A stretch of DNA of 15,206 bases from a bacterium (GTDB taxonomy: Bacteria > Zhuqueibacterota > Zhuqueibacteria > Oceanimicrobiales > Oceanimicrobiaceae): NCBI GenBank assembly GCA_046757025.1, contig JBHHXN010000126.1, positions 1-15,206 on the forward strand, read 5' to 3'. Positions 2,630 to 14,796 of this stretch are shown here, in pieces (position 1 is the first letter of the stretch; every line of letters begins with the position of its first letter). The position numbers were made by a program, and so were the translations under genes. The notes under the pieces are model-generated. The model was not told where the DNA came from. It saw only the letters and a program-made list of their open reading frames with translations, and made no database searches.

Positions 2630-4762
2630 CTACTTGACGAAGATCATTTTTCGGGTGTCCACAAAATCATCGGTTTGCAATCGGTAAAAGTAAACACCTG
2701 CTGCTACTTCAACGTTGGAGTCATTGCGGCCAAGCCAATCATAGGAATAAAATCCCGAAGGCTGAACCTGGTCAACCAGGGTACGAATACGCTGCCCCAA
2801 AAGATTGTATATCTCTAATTTCACGAAAGTCTGTTTGGGCAGCTCATAGCTCAAAACGGTGGAATTGTTGAATGGATTTGGATAATTGGGGAACAGAGAA
2901 TTGATTTCGATTTGCGTGGTATCGAGTACAATTTCATCGTGTTTGGGATTGAATAAAATTGCGCCGGTTTCGCCGACGATAGTACAAGTGTTGGCGCTGG
3001 TTACGTGAACGCCGTATAAGTTCTTAAAGGTGCCGCTTTGTTCTTTCAACCATCTCAGGCCGCTGCTTTTGGTGCGAAAAATCACGCCGCCGGTTAATTC
3101 ATCGTCGAGAAAACCGCCCACTATGATTCCGTTGTTAAGATCGGTAAAATAAACATCGAAAAAATCCCAGCTCGAGCTGCTATCCTGAACGGACCAGGTG
3201 GTCCCACCACTAGTGGTATGCAGAATAATGCCGCCGTTGCCAACCACGGTGCCTTTCTTGTCGTTGATAAAAAACACGCCGTTCAAATGATTGCTCACTC
3301 CGCTCATTTGCACTACCCAGGACGTCCCACCGGTGTGGGTCTGCAGTATGGCGCCGTCATCGCCGACGATGGTGGCAGTATATCTGGTGGCAAAGAAAAT
3401 GTCATTTAAATTTTCGTTGGATGGACTGGCAATTTTTGCCCAGGTAAGGCCGCCGTCGGAGGTCAAAAGGATGGTACCGCTATCCCCGACTGCGACGCCG
3501 GAGAGCTCATTCACCAGGAACACGTCGTTCAAACTCTGATTGGTTCCGCTCAACTGCGGAACCCAATCCACGCCGCCGTTGACTGTGTTCAAAATGATTC
3601 CCTCATCTCCCACAATGATACCGTGTTGCAAATCAGCAAAAGACACCCCCTTTAAATCTTCTTCTGTCCCACTAAATTGCATCGTCCATTCAACGCCGTT
3701 ATCTTGCGTATGCAGAATGGCACCGTCTGTACCGACTACGAAGCCTGTCAGAGAATCCGGAAACGCCAGGTTCAATAGATCTTCAGTGGTGCCTTTGGTC
3801 AAATTTACCCAGGTTGTCCCCCCGTCAATTGTGCGCAGTACCGCGCCGTTAAATCCCACCGCCGTCCCAACATTTGTATCCAGGAATTGAACAGCGCGCA
3901 GATCATCGTCAAAATCACTTTCCTGACGAAGCCAGTTTTCACCGCCGTTCGTAGTGCGCACGATGAACCCCCGGCTGCCGACTGCGGTGCCAGTCAGAGC
4001 ATCGGTAAAGTGCACGGCCCGAAACGCCCTTCTGGTACCGGTTTCCTGAGAAACCCAGCTTTTGCCGGCATCGGTAGATTTTAATATGGTGCCGCTTCTG
4101 CCAACGGCATAAACCGTGAGGCTATCCCCAAAAGAAACGCCCAACAATTCAACGGTGGTACCGCTCTGTTGCGGCGTCCAGGTCACTCCGCCATCCGTGG
4201 TACGAATGATGGTTGCCCGGCTGCCGACCGCCACACCCAGCTTTCGATCGTAGAACGAAACCGAACGCAGCCAGCGGTCGGTGCCACTGGTTTGCACTTC
4301 CCAGCTCAATCCACCATCCTCGGTGTGAAAAATCAAGCCATCCTGCCCGACCACCGTACCAAAATTTCTGTCCACAAAAGAGATTCCGCGAATGGATTTA
4401 TTCACACCGATATTTAATTGGTTCCAGTTTTTTCCGCCATCTGTAGTCCTGAGGATGGTTCCCTGAATTCCAATAGCTATCCCCAAATTGGTATCCGTAA
4501 AATAAACCCCCCGCAAGAAATGCAAGACTCCGCTATCCTGAACTTCCCAGGTTTTACCGCCATCGCGGGTGTGCAAAATCACGCCATCGCCGCCAACCAC
4601 CGTTCCGGTGTCGGGATGTACAAAAAACACTCCGTACAAATTGTTGCCCTGAGGAAGGGGATTTTGCCAGGAATATTTTTGAAAGGCAGGACTGCTACAA
4701 ATATCAAAAATGAATAGAAAAATCAGAATGACTGAAAGATAAATCGTTTTTCGAAAAATCAT
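2630..4762 (-). CDS. Secreted YCF48/BNR-repeat double beta-propeller protein with C-terminal FlgD-Ig / T9SS type A-like sorting domain
   Basis: 710 aa with a signal peptide. About 14 repeats of about 41 aa follow the pattern [AV]VGxxGxI[LF]xTxDGGx[TS]W. The C-terminal LFPNYPNPFN...IYNLLGQRIRTLV...GVYFYRL...TRKMIFVK is typical of Por-secretion-tail/FlgD domains in FCB-group bacteria. Confidence 0.88.
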   Translation of the reverse strand: MIFRKTIYLSVILIFLFIFDICSSPAFQKYSWQNPLPQGNNLYGVFFVHPDTGTVVGGDGVILHTRDGGKTWEVQDSGVLHFLRGVYFTDTNLGIAIGIQGTILRTTDGGKNWNQLNIGVNKSIRGISFVDRNFGTVVGQDGLIFHTEDGGLSWEVQTSGTDRWLRSVSFYDRKLGVAVGSRATIIRTTDGGVTWTPQQSGTTVELLGVSFGDSLTVYAVGRSGTILKSTDAGKSWVSQETGTRRAFRAVHFTDALTGTAVGSRGFIVRTTNGGENWLRQESDFDDDLRAVQFLDTNVGTAVGFNGAVLRTIDGGTTWVNLTKGTTEDLLNLAFPDSLTGFVVGTDGAILHTQDNGVEWTMQFSGTEEDLKGVSFADLQHGIIVGDEGIILNTVNGGVDWVPQLSGTNQSLNDVFLVNELSGVAVGDSGTILLTSDGGLTWAKIASPSNENLNDIFFATRYTATIVGDDGAILQTHTGGTSWVVQMSGVSNHLNGVFFINDKKGTVVGNGGIILHTTSGGTTWSVQDSSSSWDFFDVYFTDLNNGIIVGGFLDDELTGGVIFRTKSSGLRWLKEQSGTFKNLYGVHVTSANTCTIVGETGAILFNPKHDEIVLDTTQIEINSLFPNYPNPFNNSTVLSYELPKQTFVKLEIYNLLGQRIRTLVDQVQPSGFYSYDWLGRNDSNVEVAAGVYFYRLQTDDFVDTRKMIFVK

Positions 4763-5089: not shown

Positions 5090-6433
5090 TTATTCTTCCT
5101 CTACCAGTACACGCACATTCCTGGGTGCTTTTGGCAGTTCATTGTCCTGTTTGTCTGTCACGGAGGTTGCCATGAAAATCACCGGTGAGCCATCCAAACC
5201 TGGTGAAGCGGCGGTCACCGTAACCGTTTCGGCGGTGTTTCCGAAAGTCAGAGTGGTAGTGGCGCGGCCATTGAATCCGGTCACCAACGGTTGACTGTTG
5301 GACAGCGAACCTGAACCGAACACGATTTCGAATTGCACCTCAACCCCGCTAACAGGCTGGTCGTTGCTATCACGAACCTCGACCACGAATGGTTCCGGCA
5401 AAGCCGTGCCCACGAGTCCGGTTTGATCGTTACCCGATACCATGACGATTTGTGTGGCCCTAGACGGCTCCGGAATCAATCCCGGCTTTGGGTTTGGGGA
5501 ATAATATTGCTCATCGAATACGGTGCCATCCGCCAGAATATGCCGCAAACGCAGGGATTCGCCGTCCACGGTTAGCTCGGTGTAGCCGTACTCTTCGGTC
5601 TTGGCTTCCAGCATGTAACCGTTTCCGCCGTAATTAGAAGAAAAGGAATAAGAGGAAGCGCCGCCATTTCCGGTGACCACCTGTACGGTGCCTTTGACGG
5701 GATCCAGCGGCGGTTTTGGATCGCCATTCAGCTCCAGCTTTTTACTGCGGGCATAATAGTGGGCGTGACCGTTAAAAATCATGTCGCAGCCGTGCTGATA
5801 AAGGGGGATCCCCCAGGTATCGTGAATTTCGCCTTCGTAGCTTTTGGGTCCGAAATCAAAAATCGGGTAATGCCAGAAAACGAACAGCCAGGTTTTGGGG
5901 TTGTTTTGAATGGCCTCCATCATCATGGTGTATTGCTCGCCGGTCATGGAAGAAGGCCCCGAATCTAAAATAATAAAACGGGCGTTTTCATAATCAAACA
6001 CAAAATATTTACCTTCGTGCCCGAATTGTTGCGCCTGTCCCGACAGGAATTCATTCCAATTTTGCAAGCCGGTGGGATCTTTAATTTTGTCATGGTTGCC
6101 TGGTGTGGACATGTACCTGGGCGGGGATTGATTCTGACCGGTCCCGCCGAGCACGTCATCACATGCCTTTTGCCAGATTTCCCAGTCGCTTTTGTTCATA
6201 CCTTTGGCAACGACATCCCCGACGTTGATCATGAATTTATAATCGGGTGTGTTTTTCACGATCGCTTGCAACACTTCGCGATGTCGAGAATCACTGCTGC
6301 GGGTATCGCCGTAGGCGATCCATTTCCAGGATTGACTGAAACCCGAAGCGGGTAGTAAAACTGAAAAAATGAGTAAAATCCACAGACCCCCTTTCAAAAA
6401 GCAACTTTTGTTTCGTGCATTTCTTGTTTTCAT
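5090..6433 (-). CDS. Secreted calcineurin-like metallophosphoesterase (PAP-like, lacking the Tyr ligand) + Big_1-type Ig domain + conserved C-terminal tail
   Basis: Motifs YGDTR, VGDVVA, PGNHD, FWHY, GHAH. The start is moved from 6460 to ATG 6433 (GGAG upstream), giving a signal peptide ending GFS|Q. An Ig-like domain (SGNDQTG..G..L..PFVVEVRD...PVSGV.V.F) precedes the tail DNELPKAPRNVRVLVEEE. Confidence 0.85.
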   Translation of the reverse strand: MKTRNARNKSCFLKGGLWILLIFSVLLPASGFSQSWKWIAYGDTRSSDSRHREVLQAIVKNTPDYKFMINVGDVVAKGMNKSDWEIWQKACDDVLGGTGQNQSPPRYMSTPGNHDKIKDPTGLQNWNEFLSGQAQQFGHEGKYFVFDYENARFIILDSGPSSMTGEQYTMMMEAIQNNPKTWLFVFWHYPIFDFGPKSYEGEIHDTWGIPLYQHGCDMIFNGHAHYYARSKKLELNGDPKPPLDPVKGTVQVVTGNGGASSYSFSSNYGGNGYMLEAKTEEYGYTELTVDGESLRLRHILADGTVFDEQYYSPNPKPGLIPEPSRATQIVMVSGNDQTGLVGTALPEPFVVEVRDSNDQPVSGVEVQFEIVFGSGSLSNSQPLVTGFNGRATTTLTFGNTAETVTVTAASPGLDGSPVIFMATSVTDKQDNELPKAPRNVRVLVEEE

Positions 6434-6496
6434 CACCATCTCCATAAAATCAATTTGCATAAACTTTTATTCAAAATAGATCGACAGATTTCGCAT

Positions 6497-8191
6497 TTAA
6501 TCGCCACCGACGACGATTCGCACATTGGTGGGCGCGGCAGGCGGGTCCGTATCCTGAGGACCTGCATTGGCGTGTGCCGTAAATATTTGTGGCGAGCCCG
6601 TCAAACCGTTTGCGCTGGCTGCAACCGTCACAGTCCCGGCTTCGCTTCCCAAAGTCAGCACTGTCGAAGCTCGACCGTGAGCGCTGGTAATTTGCGGTTG
6701 ACTGTTAGAAAGGGCTCCAGAGCCCGAGGTTATCTCAAACGTCACGGCTACGCCGCTCACAGGATTGTTTTGGTCATCTCTCACCTGCACTTCAAACGGC
6801 AAAGGAAGGGTGGCGTTGACAAGCGCGGTTTGGTTGTTGCCTGAAATCATCACCAGTTGCGTGGCTGGACCGGTTTGATTATTGCCTTTTTTAATGGTAA
6901 AATAGTCGCGTATCTCTCCTTTATCGTCAATAAATTTAGCATCTAAAACGTTGCCAGCGATGTCCAAAATGACCGATCCCAATTCATCCAGCGAGTAAAA
7001 CATGGCCGGATGATTCAAGGAACCGCCGCTGGTTTTGCCGGAGCTGCCTGCCACAATATAGACCGCCCCTTCGTGGCCAGCCGGTCCCAAAGTCGCTTTC
7101 ACATACGCCCCATCGACGTCTTCGCGACCGCTGCCCGAGTCTAATTTCATCTCATCGGTAAGCATGCTCGATTTACCGTAATGCCCATCGATCAAATAGG
7201 AACGTTCATAAGAATGGCTGTGTCCGCTCATAACCAGATCGACCCCGGCCTCTTCCAGGCGGGTCACAGCTCGTTCGCGCATATCCACCAGCTCGCTTTC
7301 GCTGTCGGAATTGTGGGAGCCTTTGCTGTATGGCGGGTGGTGCCAGAAAGCGATGTTCCAATCTTTATCATTGGCAGCCAGGTCTTCTTCCAGCCAGGTC
7401 CACATGGGGCTGCTGGACTGCCGCATTTTGCCAGAAGTCGATTCCAGACAAATAAAATGAATGTTGCCGTAATCGAATGAATAATAGGCTTCGGTGCCGG
7501 AGGCAATTCCCCCGGCTTCGCCATTGGTGGGGAAAGTAAAAATACGATAGTAATCATCGCCGTTGGTCCAACTGCCATGGACCTTCGGCCCTCGGTCGTG
7601 ATTGCCGCGGGTTGCCCATAAAACCGATTTTCGCAGCATCGCCTCATACATATTCTCAAAAACCGCTAACTGGTATTCTTCATCCGTACCGTTGTTGTAA
7701 GCGTTATCTCCCAACATAATCCAGAGATCGGTGTGGCGATTGCCCGTGTAATTATAGTAAGCATCTCGCACCGCACGTGCATTGTCGTTTTTAGTGCCGG
7801 AATCACCCAGAATCCAAATCCGCGTAGGCTTGGGGGTGTTAGGCGGCGGCGAAGTTACAAAAAAATAACTGGCGTCATCCCCGGCTAATATTTGACTTGT
7901 GCTGCCAACTGCATAATAATATTTTGTATCCGGGGAAAGGCCGGTCAACTCCACTTCATGCTCAGTGGAGGTCTGATTTATTTCTGCACTCAGGTTTAAC
8001 TTACCGGGAGCGCTGCCGTAGCGTACCTGACTGTCTGTGGCCTGATCCGTTCGCCATTTCACCACCACGCTGGTAGATGTGCCAATTTGCAGATACGGCC
8101 CGCGTATTACATTTTGAGTAAGCGCTTCGCCACTTAGCGCCGTGAAAAAGATGAGTAATGAAATCGTCCTGATGTTTAAAACATGCTTCAT
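6497..8191 (-). CDS. Secreted purple acid phosphatase family protein (N-terminal FN3-like PAP domain, metallophosphoesterase, Big_1-type Ig, conserved tail)
   Basis: All five PAP motifs are present: GDSG, GDNAY, GNHD, FWHH, GHSH. The N-terminal domain reads RGPYLQ...VVKWRT...HEVELTGLSPDTKYYY. Signal peptide ALT|Q; GGAG RBS; tail DTDPPAAPTNVRIVVGGD. Confidence 0.9.
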   Translation of the reverse strand: MKHVLNIRTISLLIFFTALSGEALTQNVIRGPYLQIGTSTSVVVKWRTDQATDSQVRYGSAPGKLNLSAEINQTSTEHEVELTGLSPDTKYYYAVGSTSQILAGDDASYFFVTSPPPNTPKPTRIWILGDSGTKNDNARAVRDAYYNYTGNRHTDLWIMLGDNAYNNGTDEEYQLAVFENMYEAMLRKSVLWATRGNHDRGPKVHGSWTNGDDYYRIFTFPTNGEAGGIASGTEAYYSFDYGNIHFICLESTSGKMRQSSSPMWTWLEEDLAANDKDWNIAFWHHPPYSKGSHNSDSESELVDMRERAVTRLEEAGVDLVMSGHSHSYERSYLIDGHYGKSSMLTDEMKLDSGSGREDVDGAYVKATLGPAGHEGAVYIVAGSSGKTSGGSLNHPAMFYSLDELGSVILDIAGNVLDAKFIDDKGEIRDYFTIKKGNNQTGPATQLVMISGNNQTALVNATLPLPFEVQVRDDQNNPVSGVAVTFEITSGSGALSNSQPQITSAHGRASTVLTLGSEAGTVTVAASANGLTGSPQIFTAHANAGPQDTDPPAAPTNVRIVVGGD

Positions 8192-8344
8192 AATACGGCT
8201 CCGTCGGGTTTGGTGCGCTTATTTTTCCTTTTTAATCGTTTGATGGTTTAGAACATGATTTCTTCCCTCATAAAAAATATGAATCTGTAAATCCTTTCCC
8301 ATCTTCGCAAGCTCCTGTTTAACTGCAGTGGAAATTTCTCTTGT

Positions 8345-10024
8345 TTATTCTCCGCCAACCTGCACCCGCACATTCAACGGCGGCGCCGGCGGGGTGGTAT
8401 CTTGCTGTCCTTCCAAACCGGTGGCAGTGAAAGTGACCAGAGAATCCGAAAGACCGGCTGCCGTCGCGGTGACCTGAATACGGCCCGGCGTGGCGCCGAG
8501 TAACAGAGTCGCTTGCGCCCGACCGTTCGCCGCCGTCCTCACGGGCTGGCTTTCCTGTAAGGTGGCATCGCCAGAAGCCACCACGAAGGAAACGGCCACA
8601 CCCGATACCGGGTTGTTGCTGGCATCTTTTACCGCCACGACCAGAGGCGACGAAAGAGCGGTTCCTACCAACGCCGACTGATTATCGCCTGAAACCATCA
8701 CCAATTGAGCTGGCGGTCCGACTTCGAAATTGCCTTTTATCATGGTGAAATAATCCACCACGCTGCCCTGGTCGTCGATAAACGTGGCCTCCAGTCGGTT
8801 ATTTTCTATATCCAGTACCAGGGAACCCAAAATTTTTTGAGCATACAGCATCACAGGGTGATCAAATGAGCCTTTGCCAGCTTGCCCGGAAGAACCAGCC
8901 ACCACATAAACCGCGCCTTCATGCGGCGCCACACCCAGGGTGCGCTTTTTGTAAGCGCCATCGCCATCGATTCGACCATCGCCGCCATCCACCAACATGC
9001 TGTTATCAAACGAGCCGGAATCGCCGTAATGACCATCGATGAGGTACGACCGTTCATAATTGTGACTGTGGCCGCTCAAAATCAAGTCCACACCACCATC
9101 CTCTAAAATAGGCACGGCGAACTGCCGCATTAAAACTAGCGGTTTATCCGAATCCGAATCGTGGGTACCTTTGCTGTAGGGCGGGTGGTGCCAGAAAGCG
9201 ATGGTCCAGTCTTTGTCGTTGGCCGCCAGATCTTCTTCCAGCCAGGTGAGCATAGTGCTGCCCGTGGAAATTTCGCTTTTTTTATTAGAATTCAGACAGA
9301 TGAAATGAATGTTGCCGTAATCAAATGCATAGTACGATTCACTTCCTGAAGCCAGACCGCCGGCCTCGCCGTTGGTGGGCAAGGTGAATATGTCATGAAA
9401 AGGATTAGGGCCCGGCGATGAAGAGGAATTGACGTCGTGGTTTCCGAGGGTCGGCCACAACACCGACTTGATCAGCATGTCTTCGTACATATTTTCAAAC
9501 ACCGCCTGCTGATATTGCGCATCGGTGCCGCTGCTGTAGGCATTGTCGCCCAACATGAGCCATAAGTCGGTGTGGCGACTGCCGGTGAAATTATAGTACG
9601 CATCGCGAACCGCCCGGGCGTTGTCGTTTTTAGTGCCGGAATCGCCCAATATCCACAGCCGGGTGGGTTTGGCCTCTCCCGCCAGTGGCGAAGTGATAAA
9701 AAAATGTCTCTCGTCGCCGCCCGCAAGCGTTTGAGAGTCGGCGCCGATGGCATAATAGTATTTCGTGTCCGGGGAAAGATTGGACAGTCGCACTTCGTGC
9801 TCGGTTGTGGAGCCATTTTGACCGGCTTGTAAATTTAAATTACCCAAGTTGACGCCATATTTGACCTGACTGGCAGTAGCTTGATCCGTACGCCATCGGA
9901 CGATAACACTGGTTGGAGTACCACTTTGTAAATAGGGTCCGCGGATGACGGTTTGCGCTGATAAAAATCCATTCAAAGACAAAAAAAATGCTGCTATAAA
10001 AACAGAGCCCATTTTATAATTCAT
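8345..10024 (-). CDS. Secreted purple acid phosphatase family protein, paralog of 6497..8191
   Basis: Motifs GDSG, GDNAY, GNHD, FWHH, GHSH, with the same architecture and long identical stretches (e.g. WILGDSGTKNDNARAVRDAYYN). Signal peptide LSA|Q; tail DTTPPAPPLNVRVQVGGE. Confidence 0.9.
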   Translation of the reverse strand: MNYKMGSVFIAAFFLSLNGFLSAQTVIRGPYLQSGTPTSVIVRWRTDQATASQVKYGVNLGNLNLQAGQNGSTTEHEVRLSNLSPDTKYYYAIGADSQTLAGGDERHFFITSPLAGEAKPTRLWILGDSGTKNDNARAVRDAYYNFTGSRHTDLWLMLGDNAYSSGTDAQYQQAVFENMYEDMLIKSVLWPTLGNHDVNSSSSPGPNPFHDIFTLPTNGEAGGLASGSESYYAFDYGNIHFICLNSNKKSEISTGSTMLTWLEEDLAANDKDWTIAFWHHPPYSKGTHDSDSDKPLVLMRQFAVPILEDGGVDLILSGHSHNYERSYLIDGHYGDSGSFDNSMLVDGGDGRIDGDGAYKKRTLGVAPHEGAVYVVAGSSGQAGKGSFDHPVMLYAQKILGSLVLDIENNRLEATFIDDQGSVVDYFTMIKGNFEVGPPAQLVMVSGDNQSALVGTALSSPLVVAVKDASNNPVSGVAVSFVVASGDATLQESQPVRTAANGRAQATLLLGATPGRIQVTATAAGLSDSLVTFTATGLEGQQDTTPPAPPLNVRVQVGGE

Positions 10025-10047
10025 AAAAAAACCTTTCTGATTGATTT

Positions 10048-10908
10048 TTATCTGGCTGAAATTTGCTCCAGTGTCTTCTCCAACCAGGTTTTCATTCTTG
10101 AAATGGATTTGGTCTTTTGCCGACCGGGAGGAAGGGATGCAATGGCTTGCAACGCCTGGCGGTAGGCGAGGATTGCTTCGTCAATCCGCCCTGCTTCCTG
10201 AAGAATTTTACCGCGCCGCATCAACCATTTTTCTTTTCTTGCAGATTGAGCTGATATGAGATCAAGACGGGCTAATGCACCATCGTAGTTCTTTCTTTTC
10301 AGCTCCAGCTCAATGGCAAATAATTGCAGCGTGACGATGGGCCCTAAGATGTAGATACCTTCGTCCAATCCCTGAATCGCTTTGTCCAAATGCATGTGAT
10401 CAAAGCTGGCAAGCGCCCGCGCCCGCTCGATGAATAATTCGGGAGTCGGATTCTGTATCAACTTTATCGCCAGGGTGTAATCCTCGGCCGCGGTTAAATT
10501 TTCGTTTAATTTGGTGAGAACGCGCCCTCGGGTTACCAGCGCTTCGGGATTATTCGGATGCTTTGAGAGGTAGCGATTTAAAGGTACGATAGCTTGTTCA
10601 AACCGCCCTGCATCCAACAACATCATGCCACGGGCTAAATCTACCACATCCAGACGGGGATCTAAAATGGCTGCAGAATCATAGTCGGCTTGTGCTGCTT
10701 CCCAATCCAGATGATGACGGTGCAGTTCTCCGCGCTTCAAATAAAGAGCAGCGTTATCCGGAGCCAGCGCAATCTGTTTGGTCATCTCTGCAATCTGTTC
10801 ATCCAGCGGCCCATGCGCTAGTGCAAATGACGGTTTGAACAAGCAAATAATTGATAGCGCAAGTAAAATGGCGATCAAGAGAGCGAGTTTGCCGATTTTT
10901 ATTTCCAT
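10048..10908 (-). CDS. Exported tetratricopeptide-repeat protein
   Basis: 286 aa with a signal peptide ending ALA|HG. Several TPR-like helical repeats (LYLKRGEL...AQADYDSA, ALVTRGRVL...AAEDYTLAI, WLMRRGKILQEAGRIDEAILAYRQAL). It ends 23 nt before the PAP start. Confidence 0.85.
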   Translation of the reverse strand: MEIKIGKLALLIAILLALSIICLFKPSFALAHGPLDEQIAEMTKQIALAPDNAALYLKRGELHRHHLDWEAAQADYDSAAILDPRLDVVDLARGMMLLDAGRFEQAIVPLNRYLSKHPNNPEALVTRGRVLTKLNENLTAAEDYTLAIKLIQNPTPELFIERARALASFDHMHLDKAIQGLDEGIYILGPIVTLQLFAIELELKRKNYDGALARLDLISAQSARKEKWLMRRGKILQEAGRIDEAILAYRQALQAIASLPPGRQKTKSISRMKTWLEKTLEQISAR

Positions 10909-10941
10909 ATTAAAAATACGTTTAATCCGTTTTTTTCCAAA

Positions 10942-12306
10942 TCAATCACTTCCCCCAACGACTCTAACATTTTTTGGCGGATCCGGTGGAATGGAATCCG
11001 ACACCGGAATCAAAGCCATGTTTTGCCCAAAAAGCTGCTGACCGTCTGCTACCGTAATATTTTTCGACCAGTCCTGAAAGCCGTTTTTTGAGCAGTAAAG
11101 TTCATAGGAGCCCGCCGCAATGTTGTTGAAATGATAACGGCCTGTTGAGCCGGTTTGCGTTTCATAGCGGACACTTCTGCCGCTTTTCAACTGCACCAGG
11201 GCATTGGTGATGGGCTGGCGGTTGGCGCTATTTTCAACCACTCCGCTGACAGAGGTGACATCCGGCTGATTGTTGCTGCCGGTGCCGAAGGTCCAATCGG
11301 TCCAGGCGACATTTTTGCCGGGCTGGGCCGGCATTTTTGCGGGGAAGCTGGCGCCGTAAAAATAATTTATCACATGCGGGGTCCATTCATCGTCGCCTGT
11401 GGCAGGAAAATTGGCTTCGTTGTGCAGCCATTCAAACGCCCGCAGCATGGCTTTGTCTTCCCAATTCCAGACGTCGTAGCCCGCCCGGTACAAAATCACG
11501 GCTTGTGCCAGCACCCCTTGCAGGGCGCCGTAAACGTAATTGGCTTTGGGTGGCGGCCATTTAAAACCGCCGTTTCTCCGCTGATCATCCGGCAGGACGC
11601 CGTCGATGGAATGGCCGTCGCGGGTAGCGCCTTTAGGGTTGATACCAACCGGATTATCGGGATCCGCCTGCCAGGAAAGCGCCCCCCAGGTAAAACCGGC
11701 GTAGGAAGCGCGATCGCCCAGCCAGCCCTTGAATACCTGTGCGGTGCGCTCGATCTCTTCCTGATCGCCCAGATAAACCGCCACCGCGGCCCGGCTGGCG
11801 CCGGCGTGCGTTCCCCAATTGTTGCCGCGATCTTCATGGGTCGATTGCAGGGTGCGGCCGCTGAGCGATTCGGTGAGCGTTTCCCGCAGCCAGGCGCGAA
11901 AACGCTGATCTTTATCGGCCGGCAAGCCTACCAGATCCGCTGAGATCACATAAGCAGCCAGCTCGCGGCCCAGCGCCAGCGTGCGGCCGCCTTTTTCGGT
12001 ATCGATGGCTTTCATGCAAGCATCGATGACTTCGTTGCGATAAGATTCGTCGCCGCTGCGCGCGTAAACCAACGCTTTGGCCATCACCCTCACATTGACT
12101 TCATCTTCCTGATTCGAAACATTTGGCGTGCCGGTCGCTCTATCGGCCTCGGCTTTGAGATTGTTCCAGGCGGGACCGGATGTGGGCAGGTTCTGCAATT
12201 CCTCTTGAGTTATCCACATTTCTTTGCCCTGAGCCAGGACGGTCTCTCTGCTCCATAAAAGGCTCAAAATGGTCGCAATGAACATCAACGCTTTGTATTT
12301 ACGCAT
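10942..12306 (-). CDS. Secreted alginate-lyase-like (alpha/alpha toroid) protein + carboxypeptidase-regulatory-like beta-sandwich + conserved tail
   Basis: The start is moved from 12333 to ATG 12306 (GAGGAG RBS); signal peptide VLA|Q. A helical domain carries GNNWGT, resembling the NN[HW] motif of Alginate_lyase-family proteins. The C-terminal SVSGVV...PITNALVQL...TGSTGRYHF..IAAGSYEL..SKNGF module precedes the tail DSIPPDPPKNVRVVGGSD. The lyase assignment is by motif only. Confidence 0.65.
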   Translation of the reverse strand: MRKYKALMFIATILSLLWSRETVLAQGKEMWITQEELQNLPTSGPAWNNLKAEADRATGTPNVSNQEDEVNVRVMAKALVYARSGDESYRNEVIDACMKAIDTEKGGRTLALGRELAAYVISADLVGLPADKDQRFRAWLRETLTESLSGRTLQSTHEDRGNNWGTHAGASRAAVAVYLGDQEEIERTAQVFKGWLGDRASYAGFTWGALSWQADPDNPVGINPKGATRDGHSIDGVLPDDQRRNGGFKWPPPKANYVYGALQGVLAQAVILYRAGYDVWNWEDKAMLRAFEWLHNEANFPATGDDEWTPHVINYFYGASFPAKMPAQPGKNVAWTDWTFGTGSNNQPDVTSVSGVVENSANRQPITNALVQLKSGRSVRYETQTGSTGRYHFNNIAAGSYELYCSKNGFQDWSKNITVADGQQLFGQNMALIPVSDSIPPDPPKNVRVVGGSD

Positions 12307-12463
12307 GACCGAATACTCCTCAAATTCATTCATCTACTTACTATTCGCATGCCCGGTAGCTGTACTTAATTCGGCTCGTTTTGTCCTTTTCTATATCGCT
12401 TTTTGTCGGTCAAAAAAATTAACTTGTCAGCTCACTGTATTTAATCGTTTGCGATTCGACTTA

Positions 12464-13594
12464 TTAATTGAGTGCTTTCGTGCCGTGTGTCCAGTCTGTC
12501 CAGCCCACTTGCTTGCCAAATTTAACCGGCTTTCCATTCCAGAAATTGGTACCGTAAACCCGATCGATCAAAGGCAATATCCAGCGATCATCGCCTTTGG
12601 CCGGTGCATTCCCGCGCTGCGGATCCTGCTGCCAGGAAACGGCCCGCAATATGGCCTGGTCGCCCCAGCTCCAACTGTCGAAGCCTGCCCGCGAGAGCAA
12701 ATAGGCCTGTCCCACGGCGCCTTGCAAACCGCCCCAGACATGGACATCCGTACGAGGCGGCCAGCTTATTTCGCTGTCCGGGCAGCCGGCCCGGCGCTGA
12801 TCATCGGGCTGAACGCCGTCCACATCCCGCATGTCCCCCACCACCCTCATTTTCGTGCCTTTAGGCAGAATGCCAACGGGATTTTTCGGATCGGCCTGCC
12901 AGCATAAATCGCCCCATTTAAATCCGCTGTACGATTTGCGGTCACCCAGCCAGCCCTTGAAAACAGCCGCCGCCCGATTCAGATCGTCCAGTTTGCCGAG
13001 GTAGAGGGCGGCTGCGATGCGCACCACACCCGCTTGCGTACCGTGATTATTACCACGAATTTCATGTTTCTGAATCTGCGTCTTCTTGTCGAGCCGTTTT
13101 TTGTAAACCACGTACTCCAGCCACTTCCTGAATTTCTGGTCCTTTTCTGCATCCAGCGACTTCAAGTCGATGAGATCCGCGGCGAGGATGTAACCGGTCA
13201 CCGTTCGGCTCAGCGAAAGAGAATTGCCATCCGATTCCACTTTATTGTCAACCGCTTTGATGATATGCTCGGCCACCTCTTGTAATCTCTTTTGGTCATT
13301 GAGCCGGGCCGCAACCAGTGCCGCCGCCATCACTTGCGTATCGTGCACACTGCCATGCCCGCCTTTCGCCTGCGCCAAATGTAATTTATCGGCCACTGCT
13401 TTTAAATTTTTCCAGGCCCTGCCGGTAGTTGGAAGCACAGCCAGCTCCCGTTTACTCAACCAGATGCCATTGGCATGAATCTTCTGAATGGCAGGAAGCT
13501 GGGTGGATTCGGCCTTTTCGCTGAATTTTGCCTCGGAGGAACAGGCAAACAACTGGACAACGACGAGTAATAAATAAGGCAATTTTTTATTCAT
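12464..13594 (-). CDS. Lipoprotein, alginate-lyase-like paralog of 10942..12306, without the tail
   Basis: The true start is probably ATG 13594 (GGAGAGG RBS; MNKKLPYLLLVVVQLFA-C18 lipobox) rather than 13795, which overlaps the phytase. It shares VFKGWLGDR.SY.GF.WG.L.WQADP.NPVGI.PKG, DGV.PDDQRR and WTDWT with its neighbour and carries GNNHGT. Confidence 0.7.
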   Translation of the reverse strand: MNKKLPYLLLVVVQLFACSSEAKFSEKAESTQLPAIQKIHANGIWLSKRELAVLPTTGRAWKNLKAVADKLHLAQAKGGHGSVHDTQVMAAALVAARLNDQKRLQEVAEHIIKAVDNKVESDGNSLSLSRTVTGYILAADLIDLKSLDAEKDQKFRKWLEYVVYKKRLDKKTQIQKHEIRGNNHGTQAGVVRIAAALYLGKLDDLNRAAAVFKGWLGDRKSYSGFKWGDLCWQADPKNPVGILPKGTKMRVVGDMRDVDGVQPDDQRRAGCPDSEISWPPRTDVHVWGGLQGAVGQAYLLSRAGFDSWSWGDQAILRAVSWQQDPQRGNAPAKGDDRWILPLIDRVYGTNFWNGKPVKFGKQVGWTDWTHGTKALN

Positions 13595-13677
13595 ATTTTC
13601 CTCTCCCTCGTAAGAAATTTGGTGTACGCAGCATGAATTTATCGAAGTTAAAAGTAAAAATTCACAATTGAAAGAAA

Positions 13678-14796
13678 TTATTCGTCCGGACTCACTCTGA
13701 CATTTTTTGGCGGCGCCGGCGGCGTGGTATCCGTGGCCGGCGGACCGCCCCCGTTCACACAAATAGTCAGGTTGCTTTCTGCAATTTGAGCCCAATCGTA
13801 AAGATGGTAGCGGGCGCCGGCTTCATCGTGTGCCACCACGAAGCCGTTGGGAAAATTCGGCGGCACGCCTGCAGAATTCACATCCAATCCATCGGTACCC
13901 AGACCAGACTTTCCTTTGTGGTCCAACGGCTCGATGGTTTTGATGAATTTATTATCACCCTGCCGTTCATAAATTTTAAAGGTAGAATTGCCCTGGCTGG
14001 AGAGCACGAGATAACCCGTGCCATCTTTGCAAGCGTACAAAGCCAGGCCCTCTCGGTCCCCGGAGATGCCGTCTTTGGAAGCAAAAAAGCCGATTTCATC
14101 TGCGCTTTGCTGTGGGTCGGCATAAAATTTGTGAATACCTTTGGCTTCTTCTGTTATGTACACAAAAGCCAGTTCATCATCCGCTACAAAGCCCTCCGCG
14201 GTACCGCCGTTGTAATTTAAATCGCGTACGGCGGTGACGGTCACGTCTTCACCCGTGCCGTCGTCTTCAATTCGATATTGACGAACTTCTCCGCCGTTTT
14301 TGGGTCGTTCAAATACAAATAAAGCGCCATCCATGGCCCGTCGATACAACCCAAATCCATAGCTATCTTTCTGAATGTCATTACCTTTGCTGTCTTTGTC
14401 GGCAATTTGCACCAGGACGTCCCCACTGCTATAATCGCGATTCACTTTAAACACGGCTAATTTACCGGCATCGCGTAAATTGGCCGCCACCACATCCACC
14501 ATCACGCCTCCCAACTGAATTCCATAGCGCACATCCACGTTGTTGGTCTTCGTACCTTGTTGAATATGTTGCAATTCGTTTCCGTCCATGTCCCACACAT
14601 AAATGCCGGCATCTTTATCGGTGCCAATGATGACGCTTTTAGAAGGATCCGTTGGATGAATCCACACAGCCGGATCATCTGCGTTGCCGGCAGTGGGTGC
14701 GGTACTCACCGTCGGCGCCACTACGGTTTGCCCCTGGATAGTACTACCAATCAATAAAAGAACAATACCAATCTGCGGTGATATGCGATTCTTCAT
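13678..14796 (-). CDS. phy: Beta-propeller phytase (3-phytase, Bacillus PhyC-like) with conserved C-terminal tail
   Basis: BPP signatures ADDPAVWIHP, IIGTDK, NNVDVRY, YG, AEGFVADDE, DREGLALY, SSQGN, TDG and FPNGFVVAHD. Signal peptide IQG|Q; GAGG RBS; tail DTTPPAPPKNVRVSPDE. Confidence 0.92.
   Translation of the reverse strand: MKNRISPQIGIVLLLIGSTIQGQTVVAPTVSTAPTAGNADDPAVWIHPTDPSKSVIIGTDKDAGIYVWDMDGNELQHIQQGTKTNNVDVRYGIQLGGVMVDVVAANLRDAGKLAVFKVNRDYSSGDVLVQIADKDSKGNDIQKDSYGFGLYRRAMDGALFVFERPKNGGEVRQYRIEDDGTGEDVTVTAVRDLNYNGGTAEGFVADDELAFVYITEEAKGIHKFYADPQQSADEIGFFASKDGISGDREGLALYACKDGTGYLVLSSQGNSTFKIYERQGDNKFIKTIEPLDHKGKSGLGTDGLDVNSAGVPPNFPNGFVVAHDEAGARYHLYDWAQIAESNLTICVNGGGPPATDTTPPAPPKNVRVSPDE

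Follow-up and report, generated by a model that had tools for sequence, protein, structure and literature searches.

A C-terminal peptide resembling FN3 strand A on unrelated secreted enzymes, and candidate strand-less FN3 acceptors for its proposed docking

Our analysis of a window of 15,206 nucleotides (the whole stretch of DNA under study, from a bacterium of the Zhuqueibacteria) revealed five genes whose products end in a common tail, which matches in sequence strand A, together with the opening linker, of the FN3 domain (PF00041). The reading we favour, to which we give a probability of roughly 60%, is that enzymes dock onto anchored adaptors by donor-strand complementation, the tail completing a strand-less FN3 domain in trans. 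The genes and tails concerned are as follows.

13678..14796, minus strand: phytase-family beta-propeller protein of 372 aa with a signal-peptide-like N-terminus and the tail (ORF; PF02333, E 7e-60)
13681..13731, minus strand: Tail 1, an FN3 strand-A-like candidate donor peptide immediately behind the phytase catalytic domain
12464..13594, minus strand: second alginate-lyase-like gene, which has neither tail nor CTD (PF05426; ATG at 13594)
10942..12333, minus strand: alginate-lyase-like protein with a CarboxypepD_reg Ig domain and the tail (PF05426, PF13620)
10945..10998, minus strand: Tail 2, end of the alginate-lyase-like protein 10942..12333
10048..10908, minus strand: TPR-repeat protein with a signal-peptide-like N-terminus, without tail (TPR Pfams)
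8345..10024, minus strand: purple-acid-phosphatase-like metallophosphoesterase with Big_1 and the tail (PF16656, PF00149, PF02369)
8348..8401, minus strand: Tail 3, end of the metallophosphoesterase 8345..10024
6497..8191, minus strand: purple-acid-phosphatase-like metallophosphoesterase with Big_1 and the tail, paralog of 8345..10024 (PF16656, PF00149, PF02369)
6500..6553, minus strand: Tail 4, end of the metallophosphoesterase 6497..8191
5090..6460, minus strand: metallophosphoesterase with Big_1 and the tail (PF00149, PF14008, PF02369)
5093..5146, minus strand: Tail 5, end of the metallophosphoesterase 5090..6460
2630..4762, minus strand: BNR/YCF48-like repeat protein that carries an ordinary type A CTD of the T9SS (TIGR04183); it has no tail and serves as a contrast case

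All five near-identical peptides claimed in the preliminary description lie at these coordinates with the stop codon immediately next, and by Pfam their carriers, a phytase, an alginate-lyase-like protein and three metallophosphoesterases, indeed represent three unrelated families. Each tail has the form D-x-x-P-P-x-x-P-x-N-V-R-V, followed by 4-5 residues and the stop. Two features taken as invariant hold within the window but not in general: among 51 tails the NVR is really [NG]V[RK], and the last residue, acidic in all five, is N in 17, D in 10, E in 7 and P in 7, for which reason an acidic end was rejected as a component of the signal. The codons of the window tails differ at synonymous sites, and a recent DNA duplication of the tail was rejected as well. 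Three further tail genes are located elsewhere in the genome, eight in total. The pattern P..P.[NG]V[RK][VI] occurs 8 times among 2,931 ORFs of at least 250 aa, each time at most 8 residues from the stop, and since such positions make up 1.8% of residues the terminal motif is not a matter of chance, with the reservation that the pattern was taken from these tails and the count is partly circular. The motif is terminal, as had been supposed; with a looser pattern there are 82 internal matches and 11 terminal ones, of which 8 are real genes and 3 are short shadow frames. Moreover, the tail also terminates unrelated secreted proteins throughout this KSB1-like class and, beyond it, in several other phyla, with its residues strongly conserved and the stop 1-10, mostly 3-5, residues beyond the strand in dozens of unrelated families. 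When 61 related genomes were searched with a DNA pattern, the outcome was noisy, a reversed control pattern matching about equally often, and it served only for choosing by eye 40 in-frame loci, 35 of them with real tails; a proline-rich false match (L039) was dropped from the set, and L040-L043 have no tail.

No family model covers the tail, in line with the preliminary description, which did not recognise it as a named signal: the five tails, taken as 26 aa each, gave zero matches against NCBIfam and Pfam with E up to 10. By themselves they give no Pfam FN3 match, and strands B-G are absent. In this genome, 4 of the best 5 internal matches of the tail profile precede an FN3 strand-B (xLxW) segment, while in the lyase homologs P0159, P0174 and P0201 a complete FN3 domain is followed by the tail; compared as a profile with L033, the tail alignment matched solely the tail of L033 itself. 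Identity with the T9SS CTD or a short CTD was rejected, as the five tail proteins have no TIGR04183 match and no GxY or terminal basic motifs, whereas the BNR/YCF48-like protein scores 42.9 bits (cut-off 23). A dockerin was rejected because PF00404 is unmatched in the tails and the window proteins, and PEP-CTERM, GlyGly-CTERM, MYXO-CTERM and LPXTG were rejected for want of a membrane helix, a basic cluster and an NCBIfam match. In the literature covered, which includes few subscription papers, neither the tail nor a strand-less FN3 acceptor was found described.

The preliminary description had taken the tail for an orphan strand that fills the gap in an acceptor without strand A. The partner so predicted was found in this genome, in the class and in genomes from other phyla that bear the tail, which supports this idea, the binding itself being proposed from sequences and models; three of the four conditions named there as refuting did not hold. 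Three proteins of this genome (C6:65568, C132:3728 and C148:7574) have an 82-aa FN3 domain that opens at strand B directly behind a signal-peptide-like segment, and all three end in a T9SS CTD (TIGR04183 25.7, 23.8 and 26 bits, respectively, with the cut-off of 23). The acceptors match PF00041 above the cut-off, and the match starts at model position 12-15 of 84. The predicted model of the acceptor domain has six strands, not seven, with a pLDDT of 92.5; its FN3 fold is supported by Foldseek and VIA matches, and in the comparison with solved FN3 chains (best Z 10.6, rmsd 1.7-2.1, 77-79 aligned) its residue 1 aligns with residue 14-20 of the chains (among them 1qr4, 3teu and 2h45). A fold search against viral models gave generic FN3 matches only. 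Taken at this level, the acceptors are predicted to be incomplete beta-sandwiches without strand A, and since the domain is modelled confidently by itself, it may also be stable without a partner.

The acceptor is matched in 123 of 125 class genomes, and the best 30 class loci, judged by eye, all open at strand B behind a hydrophobic leader. Two of the three acceptors of this genome adjoin PorV-family barrel genes and the third adjoins polysaccharide-export genes; 20 relatives were fetched, one of which, of another type and cut by a contig end, was left out, and in 19 of 19 a PorV-family gene comes after the short acceptor-CTD gene. The genome also encodes SprA, PorU and 17 PorV-family genes over the cut-off. 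Where a phylum has no T9SS, this acceptor domain occurs joined to a lipoprotein signal, a membrane helix, or SLH-like or dockerin-like modules, and because these are other likely anchors, the tag would be a docking signal and not a T9SS signal. In other phyla, a strand-less FN3 domain behind a signal peptide is the top match in 19 of 24 tail-bearing genomes versus 0 of 20 controls, where the genomes are related (9 of the 24 are Acidobacteriota), the classes were assigned by eye, and the controls are genomes with chance pattern matches, which may have tails; the class itself offers no such contrast, since both halves are nearly universal there. The T9SS/PorV-linked acceptors and this contrast between tail-bearing and control genomes are new.

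Among the homologs, the tail stands in place of a CTD, an SLH or a membrane anchor. For 120 lyase homologs the counts are tail 47, CTD 17, both 0 and neither 50, and for 120 phytase homologs 16, 45, 0 and 59; as tail and CTD never come together in the 240 homologs, they occupy the same slot. Such replacement would also suit a stand-alone sorting signal, read by a transporter, a protease or a TPR/PDZ-like receptor through beta-augmentation, with the strand-less FN3 domains being unrelated stable six-stranded modules. We consider this unlikely, although several facts speak for it. A TPR gene lies inside the operon; a glycosyltransferase, flippase, Wzy or epimerase gene is at most two genes away in 11 of 31 class loci (a raw count without a background rate), recalling the habit of PEP-CTERM proteins, which are associated with exopolysaccharide loci; and donors and acceptors are seldom neighbours: they adjoin in 1 of 43 class loci, namely L026, where a single protein comprises both halves, and in 3 of 80 flanked loci in other phyla, for which the HMM used misses divergent acceptors such as L149. 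However, no recurrent transporter or peptidase was seen beside the tails in 83 of 104 neighbours scanned, nor any sortase-like gene among these 83, and the reading leaves unexplained why the tail is a strand A, why there are domains without exactly strand A, and why both occur in one chain. The tail also has no T9SS motifs and is present in phyla from which T9SS is not known.

A cis reading, in which the tail turns back on its own protein and completes or caps one of that protein's domains as in a circular permutation, has little probability. An Ig-like domain precedes the tail in 4 of the 5 window proteins, and both halves are present in some single proteins (L026, L056, L073 and L149); nevertheless, in the phytase and many lyase homologs the tail is right behind the catalytic domain without any strand-less domain, the Big_1 and CarboxypepD_reg matches in the window proteins end far before the tail, and proteins of the L026 type, two-part proteins of 117 aa, have about 6 residues between strand G and the tail, which, from the geometry of FN3, would be too few to cross the domain. 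A single-sequence AlphaFold2 model of the two-part L149 left the tail unplaced, and with a mean pLDDT of 63.7 it is uninformative on cis versus trans pairing. It is still less probable that the tail is a vestige of FN3-bearing ancestors truncated past the linker and strand A, a remnant without partner. Truncation would have a possible source, as this genome encodes intact proteins of the enzyme-FN3-CTD type, and many homologs have no tail at all, but a common break point would then be needed over dozens of unrelated families in several phyla, the residues are strongly conserved despite the synonymous divergence, the DNA downstream of each window stop holds no FN3-like frame and no decayed FN3, and, contrary to what had been named beforehand as a simple explanation, 0 of 240 homologs continue from the tail to FN3 strands B-G. 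Least credible is a version in which docking follows separate export or is confined to the periplasm, the enzymes leaving by type II secretion or staying inside; it shares the docking step with our reading and is partly counted there. An internal strand-less FN3-CTD gene (C69:5627) sits, by eye, amid type II secretion/pseudopilin-like genes, and T9SS is not known from most tail-bearing phyla, but in this genome a CTD above the cut-off is present in each of the three signal-adjacent acceptors and in none of the donors.

Under docking by donor-strand complementation, enzyme and adaptor would each reach the periplasm by Sec, and the tail would slot in alongside strand B, so that a seven-stranded FN3 domain is rebuilt from two chains. 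Conceivably, the CTD of the adaptor would then carry the pair through SprA as a piggyback export, and the cognate PorV-family barrel may retain it at the surface. More tentatively, and rather against the odds, the whole could be a natural split-FN3 plug-and-socket across many Gram-negative phyla, where a 15-residue strand-A tag snaps secreted enzymes into adaptor sockets; in KSB1-like bacteria, sockets that bear a T9SS CTD and have a PorV barrel dedicated to them would bring out by piggyback, and display, enzymes which themselves have no T9SS tag, and two-part subunits would form head-to-tail rods, a minimal strand-donation cellulosome. The window proteins carry only the donor half, the two-part proteins being encoded elsewhere.

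A co-folding of one pair, namely the strand-less domain of C148 with the C-terminal 107 aa of the lyase (Ig domain and Tail 2), scored 0.56 against 0.02 for the best control; no contacts were returned, so it does not place the interface at the tail, and we grade it as weak. Contact agreement of the runs was at least 75% with a partner pLDDT of at least 80; of 157 solved pairs, 116 reach the co-folding mark, as do 2 of 215 mismatched ones, and a score of at most 0.60 among pairs reaching it is seen for only 18 of the 157 solved pairs and for both mismatches. The score may mirror likeness to solved FN3 domains.

Among known systems, the proposed docking resembles donor-strand complementation in pili (chaperone-usher, Bacteroidia type V, CPR Pam and archaeal cannulae), where one chain lends a strand to the incomplete beta-sandwich of another. 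In Bacteroidia type V pili the donor strand is C-terminal. In the Pam system, the FnIII-containing PamR is predicted to give an N-terminal strand to a pilin (PMC13278184). Here, in contrast, the fold is FN3 and the missing strand is A, the donor forms the C-terminal end of catalytic enzymes from many families, donor and acceptor genes mostly belong to different loci, and neither the window nor the 83 neighbours scanned contained a chaperone, an usher or a processing protease. Cohesin-dockerin pairs of the cellulosome likewise use a portable C-terminal module to dock unrelated enzymes on anchored scaffolds, but a dockerin folds into a Ca-binding domain of about 60-70 aa with duplicated repeats, whereas the tail, about 15 aa long, is a single strand and would complete its own receptor. 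Cargo with a cognate PorV-family barrel is known from PorU-PorV, PorZ-PorQ and SprB-SprF, which the coupling of short acceptor-CTD genes to PorV-family genes resembles; unlike those, the cargo here consists of a strand-less FN3 and a CTD only, as in an adaptor, with no catalytic or adhesive part. Like PEP-CTERM, GlyGly-CTERM, MYXO-CTERM and LPXTG, the tail is a short, conserved motif that ends unrelated secreted proteins and often occurs close to surface-polysaccharide genes; it differs in the features by which these were rejected above. The T9SS CTD is also C-terminal, on Sec-exported enzymes, and exchangeable with the tail among homologs. The short CTDs described in Prevotella intermedia have 40-55 aa, three strands, and GxY and terminal basic motifs (PMC11969387), whereas the tail is one Pro-rich strand without such motifs, in phyla beyond the T9SS range.

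If docking is true, a common and unannotated targeting signal would get a name, a large class of proteins annotated merely as partial FN3 domains would be explained, and a docking route for surface enzymes would be added to sortase-type tags, T9SS CTDs and dockerins, with the first case of T9SS piggyback export through fold completion. It would predict where many enzymes that process polysaccharides or phosphate are located in uncultured KSB1, Acidobacteriota, Nitrospirota and Verrucomicrobiota, and would provide a natural peptide-tag/catcher pair of a peptide and an 80-residue domain.

As for the other genes of the window, a promoter and terminator scan added nothing. The second alginate-lyase-like gene has by eye a lipobox-like Cys near the N-terminus and is possibly a lipoprotein; the lipobox is not conserved in the syntenic genes of L004 and L005. 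The position of the TPR gene is occupied by a gene of similar size in the syntenic clusters L004, L005, L006 and L007.

The genes of the window are arranged as a single run:

Gene run, (-) strand: phytase-family gene, two alginate-lyase-like genes, TPR gene, three metallophosphoesterase genes, BNR-repeat gene with a type IX secretion (T9SS) C-terminal domain (CTD), amidohydrolase gene.

The C-terminal peptide, or tail, which the preliminary description had assigned to five of these genes, is indeed found in each of them, at the coordinates given there, with a stop codon immediately after it, and no FN3-like frame was found in the DNA past the five stops. In the 5.96-Mb host genome, of which the window is contig C126, tail genes also occur at C1:92680, C7:67598 and C82:268 (contig:position), and the tight tail motif is seen 8 times in 2,931 long ORFs, all 8 within 8 residues of the stop, a count that is partly circular since the motif was derived from the counted tails. 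The named homologs carry the labels candidate division KSB1 and Calditrichaceae, and from these labels the host lineage is probably KSB1-like. Besides, a tail-less lyase paralog in the same operon (12464-13594) bears a lipobox-like Cys, a possible alternative anchor that is not conserved in two syntenic clusters; and a secreted-type TPR protein (10048-10908), a candidate chaperone or phosphatase partner, lies ahead of the purple-acid-phosphatase gene, likewise in the syntenic clusters.

Window-like clusters recur in genomes of the same family (L004-L007). As a DNA pattern search of 61 related genomes was noisy, 40 in-frame matches were chosen by eye, and 35 of these hand-picked loci gave 47 real tail proteins; the carriers in the related genomes include members of the GH5, GHL15, beta-helix, phytase and lyase families as well as proteins of unknown family. 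From 50 tails the consensus reads D-x-x-[PA]-P-x-x-P-x-[NG]-V-[RK]-[VI], with the stop mostly 3-5 residues on. Thus in the NVR once called invariant the V is kept, N may be G and R may be K, and the last residue, formerly regarded as always acidic, is variable. An N-L-R variant pattern gave 119 stretches over GTDB genomes, 79 of which end a long open frame (4 of them apparently spurious on inspection) versus 17% (721/4,243) of random stops; the titled records are mainly Acidobacteriota, with Nitrospiraceae, delta proteobacteria, Verrucomicrobia, Calditrichota, Gemmatimonadales and Marinobacter. Within the host's GTDB class, a glycosyltransferase, flippase, Wzy or sugar epimerase gene lies at most two genes away in 11 of 31 loci outside window-like clusters, a raw count on 83 of 104 neighbours. 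Two minor observations were made: directly behind a tail gene of another genome (L010:5784-6100, in G051:C147), the tail-plus-stop DNA forms about 8 head-to-tail repeats with a 40-bp period, the first copy alone being in frame; and a tail-bearing DUF2271 protein directly precedes a DsbD-family gene in four genomes (L003, L018, L019, L025).

As for the nature of the tail, an FN3 strand-B segment comes next in 4 of the 5 best internal tail-profile matches after the eight tails, and three lyase homologs have a complete FN3 followed by a C-terminal tail; the tail therefore corresponds to the linker plus strand A of FN3, as had been proposed. No lyase or phytase homolog runs on from the tail into strands B-G, which speaks against simple truncation of an FN3 domain; three lyase homologs extend 15-20 residues past the tail. 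By regular-expression classes, 120 lyase homologs comprise 47 with tail, 17 with CTD, none with both and 50 with neither; the figures for 120 phytase homologs are 16, 45, 0 and 59, and some other phytase homologs have SLH domains or a membrane helix at the C-terminus. Judged by these homologs, the tail occupies the slot of an anchoring module.

A candidate for the predicted partner without strand A is present in the same genome. It was found by searching with L026, a relative's 117-aa tail protein consisting of signal peptide, FN3 from strand B and tail: the proteins at C6:65568, C132:3728 and C148:7574 start like L026 and end in a T9SS CTD, and three internal strand-less domains stand behind CBM60-like modules (C69 once, C45 twice). 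In the other, full-length FN3 matches a proline-rich strand-A-like segment stands in front. The C148 domain is modelled as an FN3 fold of six strands (pLDDT 92.5), and in the model-based comparison its residue 1 aligns with residue 14-20 of solved FN3 chains; Pfam matches of the acceptors start at position 12-15 of 84. A PorV-family gene comes after each of the C6 and C132 acceptor genes; behind that of C148 stand a gene for polysaccharide export and one that is Wzz-like (the latter by eye). SprA and PorU are encoded in the genome, together with 17 PorV-family genes over the cut-off and at least 150 CTD matches. This is a T9SS outside Bacteroidota, and a literature search found no paper treating both KSB1 and type IX secretion. 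In C69 (L047, 5627-7117) and C45 (L048), the CBM60-like repeats precede the internal strand-less FN3 and then a CTD or dockerin; as read by eye, the gene in C69 lies amid type II secretion/pseudopilin-like genes.

Across the class, the acceptor domain is matched in 123 of 125 genomes, and all of the best 30 loci, read by eye, begin at strand B behind a hydrophobic leader. For the short acceptor type, a PorV-family gene comes next in 19/19 (20 were retrieved by frame length; one proved another type and was left out). Among homologs of the L026 protein, read by eye, the C-terminus is a CTD, a dockerin-like module, a tail or a tail plus helix, and others start with lipoprotein-like or membrane-anchor leaders. 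In other phyla, the acceptor profile matches 23 of 24 tail-bearing genomes versus 6 of 20 whose pattern match was judged chance. The top match, by eye, is a strand-less domain right behind a signal peptide in 19/24 versus 0/20, and elsewhere in the protein in 2 more tail genomes and 2 controls; the Fisher value for 19/24 versus 0/20, 3e-8, overstates the contrast because Acidobacteriota make up 9 of the 24 and the controls may carry tails. Donor and acceptor genes are rarely adjacent, L087 being a clear adjacent pair.

The tail and the strand-less domains, with the anchors and gene neighbours of the latter, are thus the observed components, and we predict, with a probability of about 0.6, that the tail docks in trans onto the strand-less FN3. 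Tail-bearing enzyme and adaptor would both be exported by Sec, the tail would insert as strand A into the adaptor's FN3, the adaptor's CTD would carry the pair out, and a cognate PorV-family barrel would retain it. Co-folding of the C148 domain with the tail-bearing lyase Ig domain scored 0.56 versus 0.02 for the best control, with at least 75% of contacts agreeing between runs and partner pLDDT at least 80. The calibration mark is reached by 116/157 solved and 2/215 mismatched pairs, at 0.60 or under by only 18/157 solved pairs and both mismatches, and the score came without contact list; familiar-fold halves can also pass through likeness to solved FN3s; the result lends weak support to this pairing. 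That the tail acts as a stand-alone signal seems rather unlikely. Cis folding, a vestige or other export routes share the small remaining likelihood, and cis folding cannot apply to the phytase, since a strand-less domain is missing from it.

The proposed docking would work like donor-strand complementation in pili, and is alike in purpose to dockerin docking in the cellulosome, both as generally known. Pam pili serve as comparison system (PMC13278184). Membership of the T9SS CTD family was rejected, short CTDs being longer (40-55 aa) and three-stranded according to PMC11969387; sortase-type signal and dockerin families were rejected as well, and Pfam and NCBIfam scans of the tails gave no match at all. 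A literature search over main texts found no description of the tail tag. The locus contributes an acceptor class linked to T9SS CTD/PorV, the finding that tail and CTD exclude each other in two enzyme families, and a controlled contrast of tail-bearing with chance-match genomes.

Further architectures were seen among proteins with strand-less FN3 domains. One family, of about 130 aa (P0005-P0046, P0111, P0113), consists of signal peptide, strand-less FN3, strand-A-like segment and amphipathic C-terminal helix. In a conserved class of acceptors of about 430 aa (L058, L063, L064, L067, L072, L075, L077), a YPNP/MPNP-like end replaces the full CTD, and each gene is succeeded by a related secreted gene. 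Moreover, two Vicinamibacterales proteins (L149:3647-4903, L130:1068-2021) have a divergent strand-less FN3-like N-terminus, three Ig-like repeats and a tail, and are candidate head-to-tail rod subunits.
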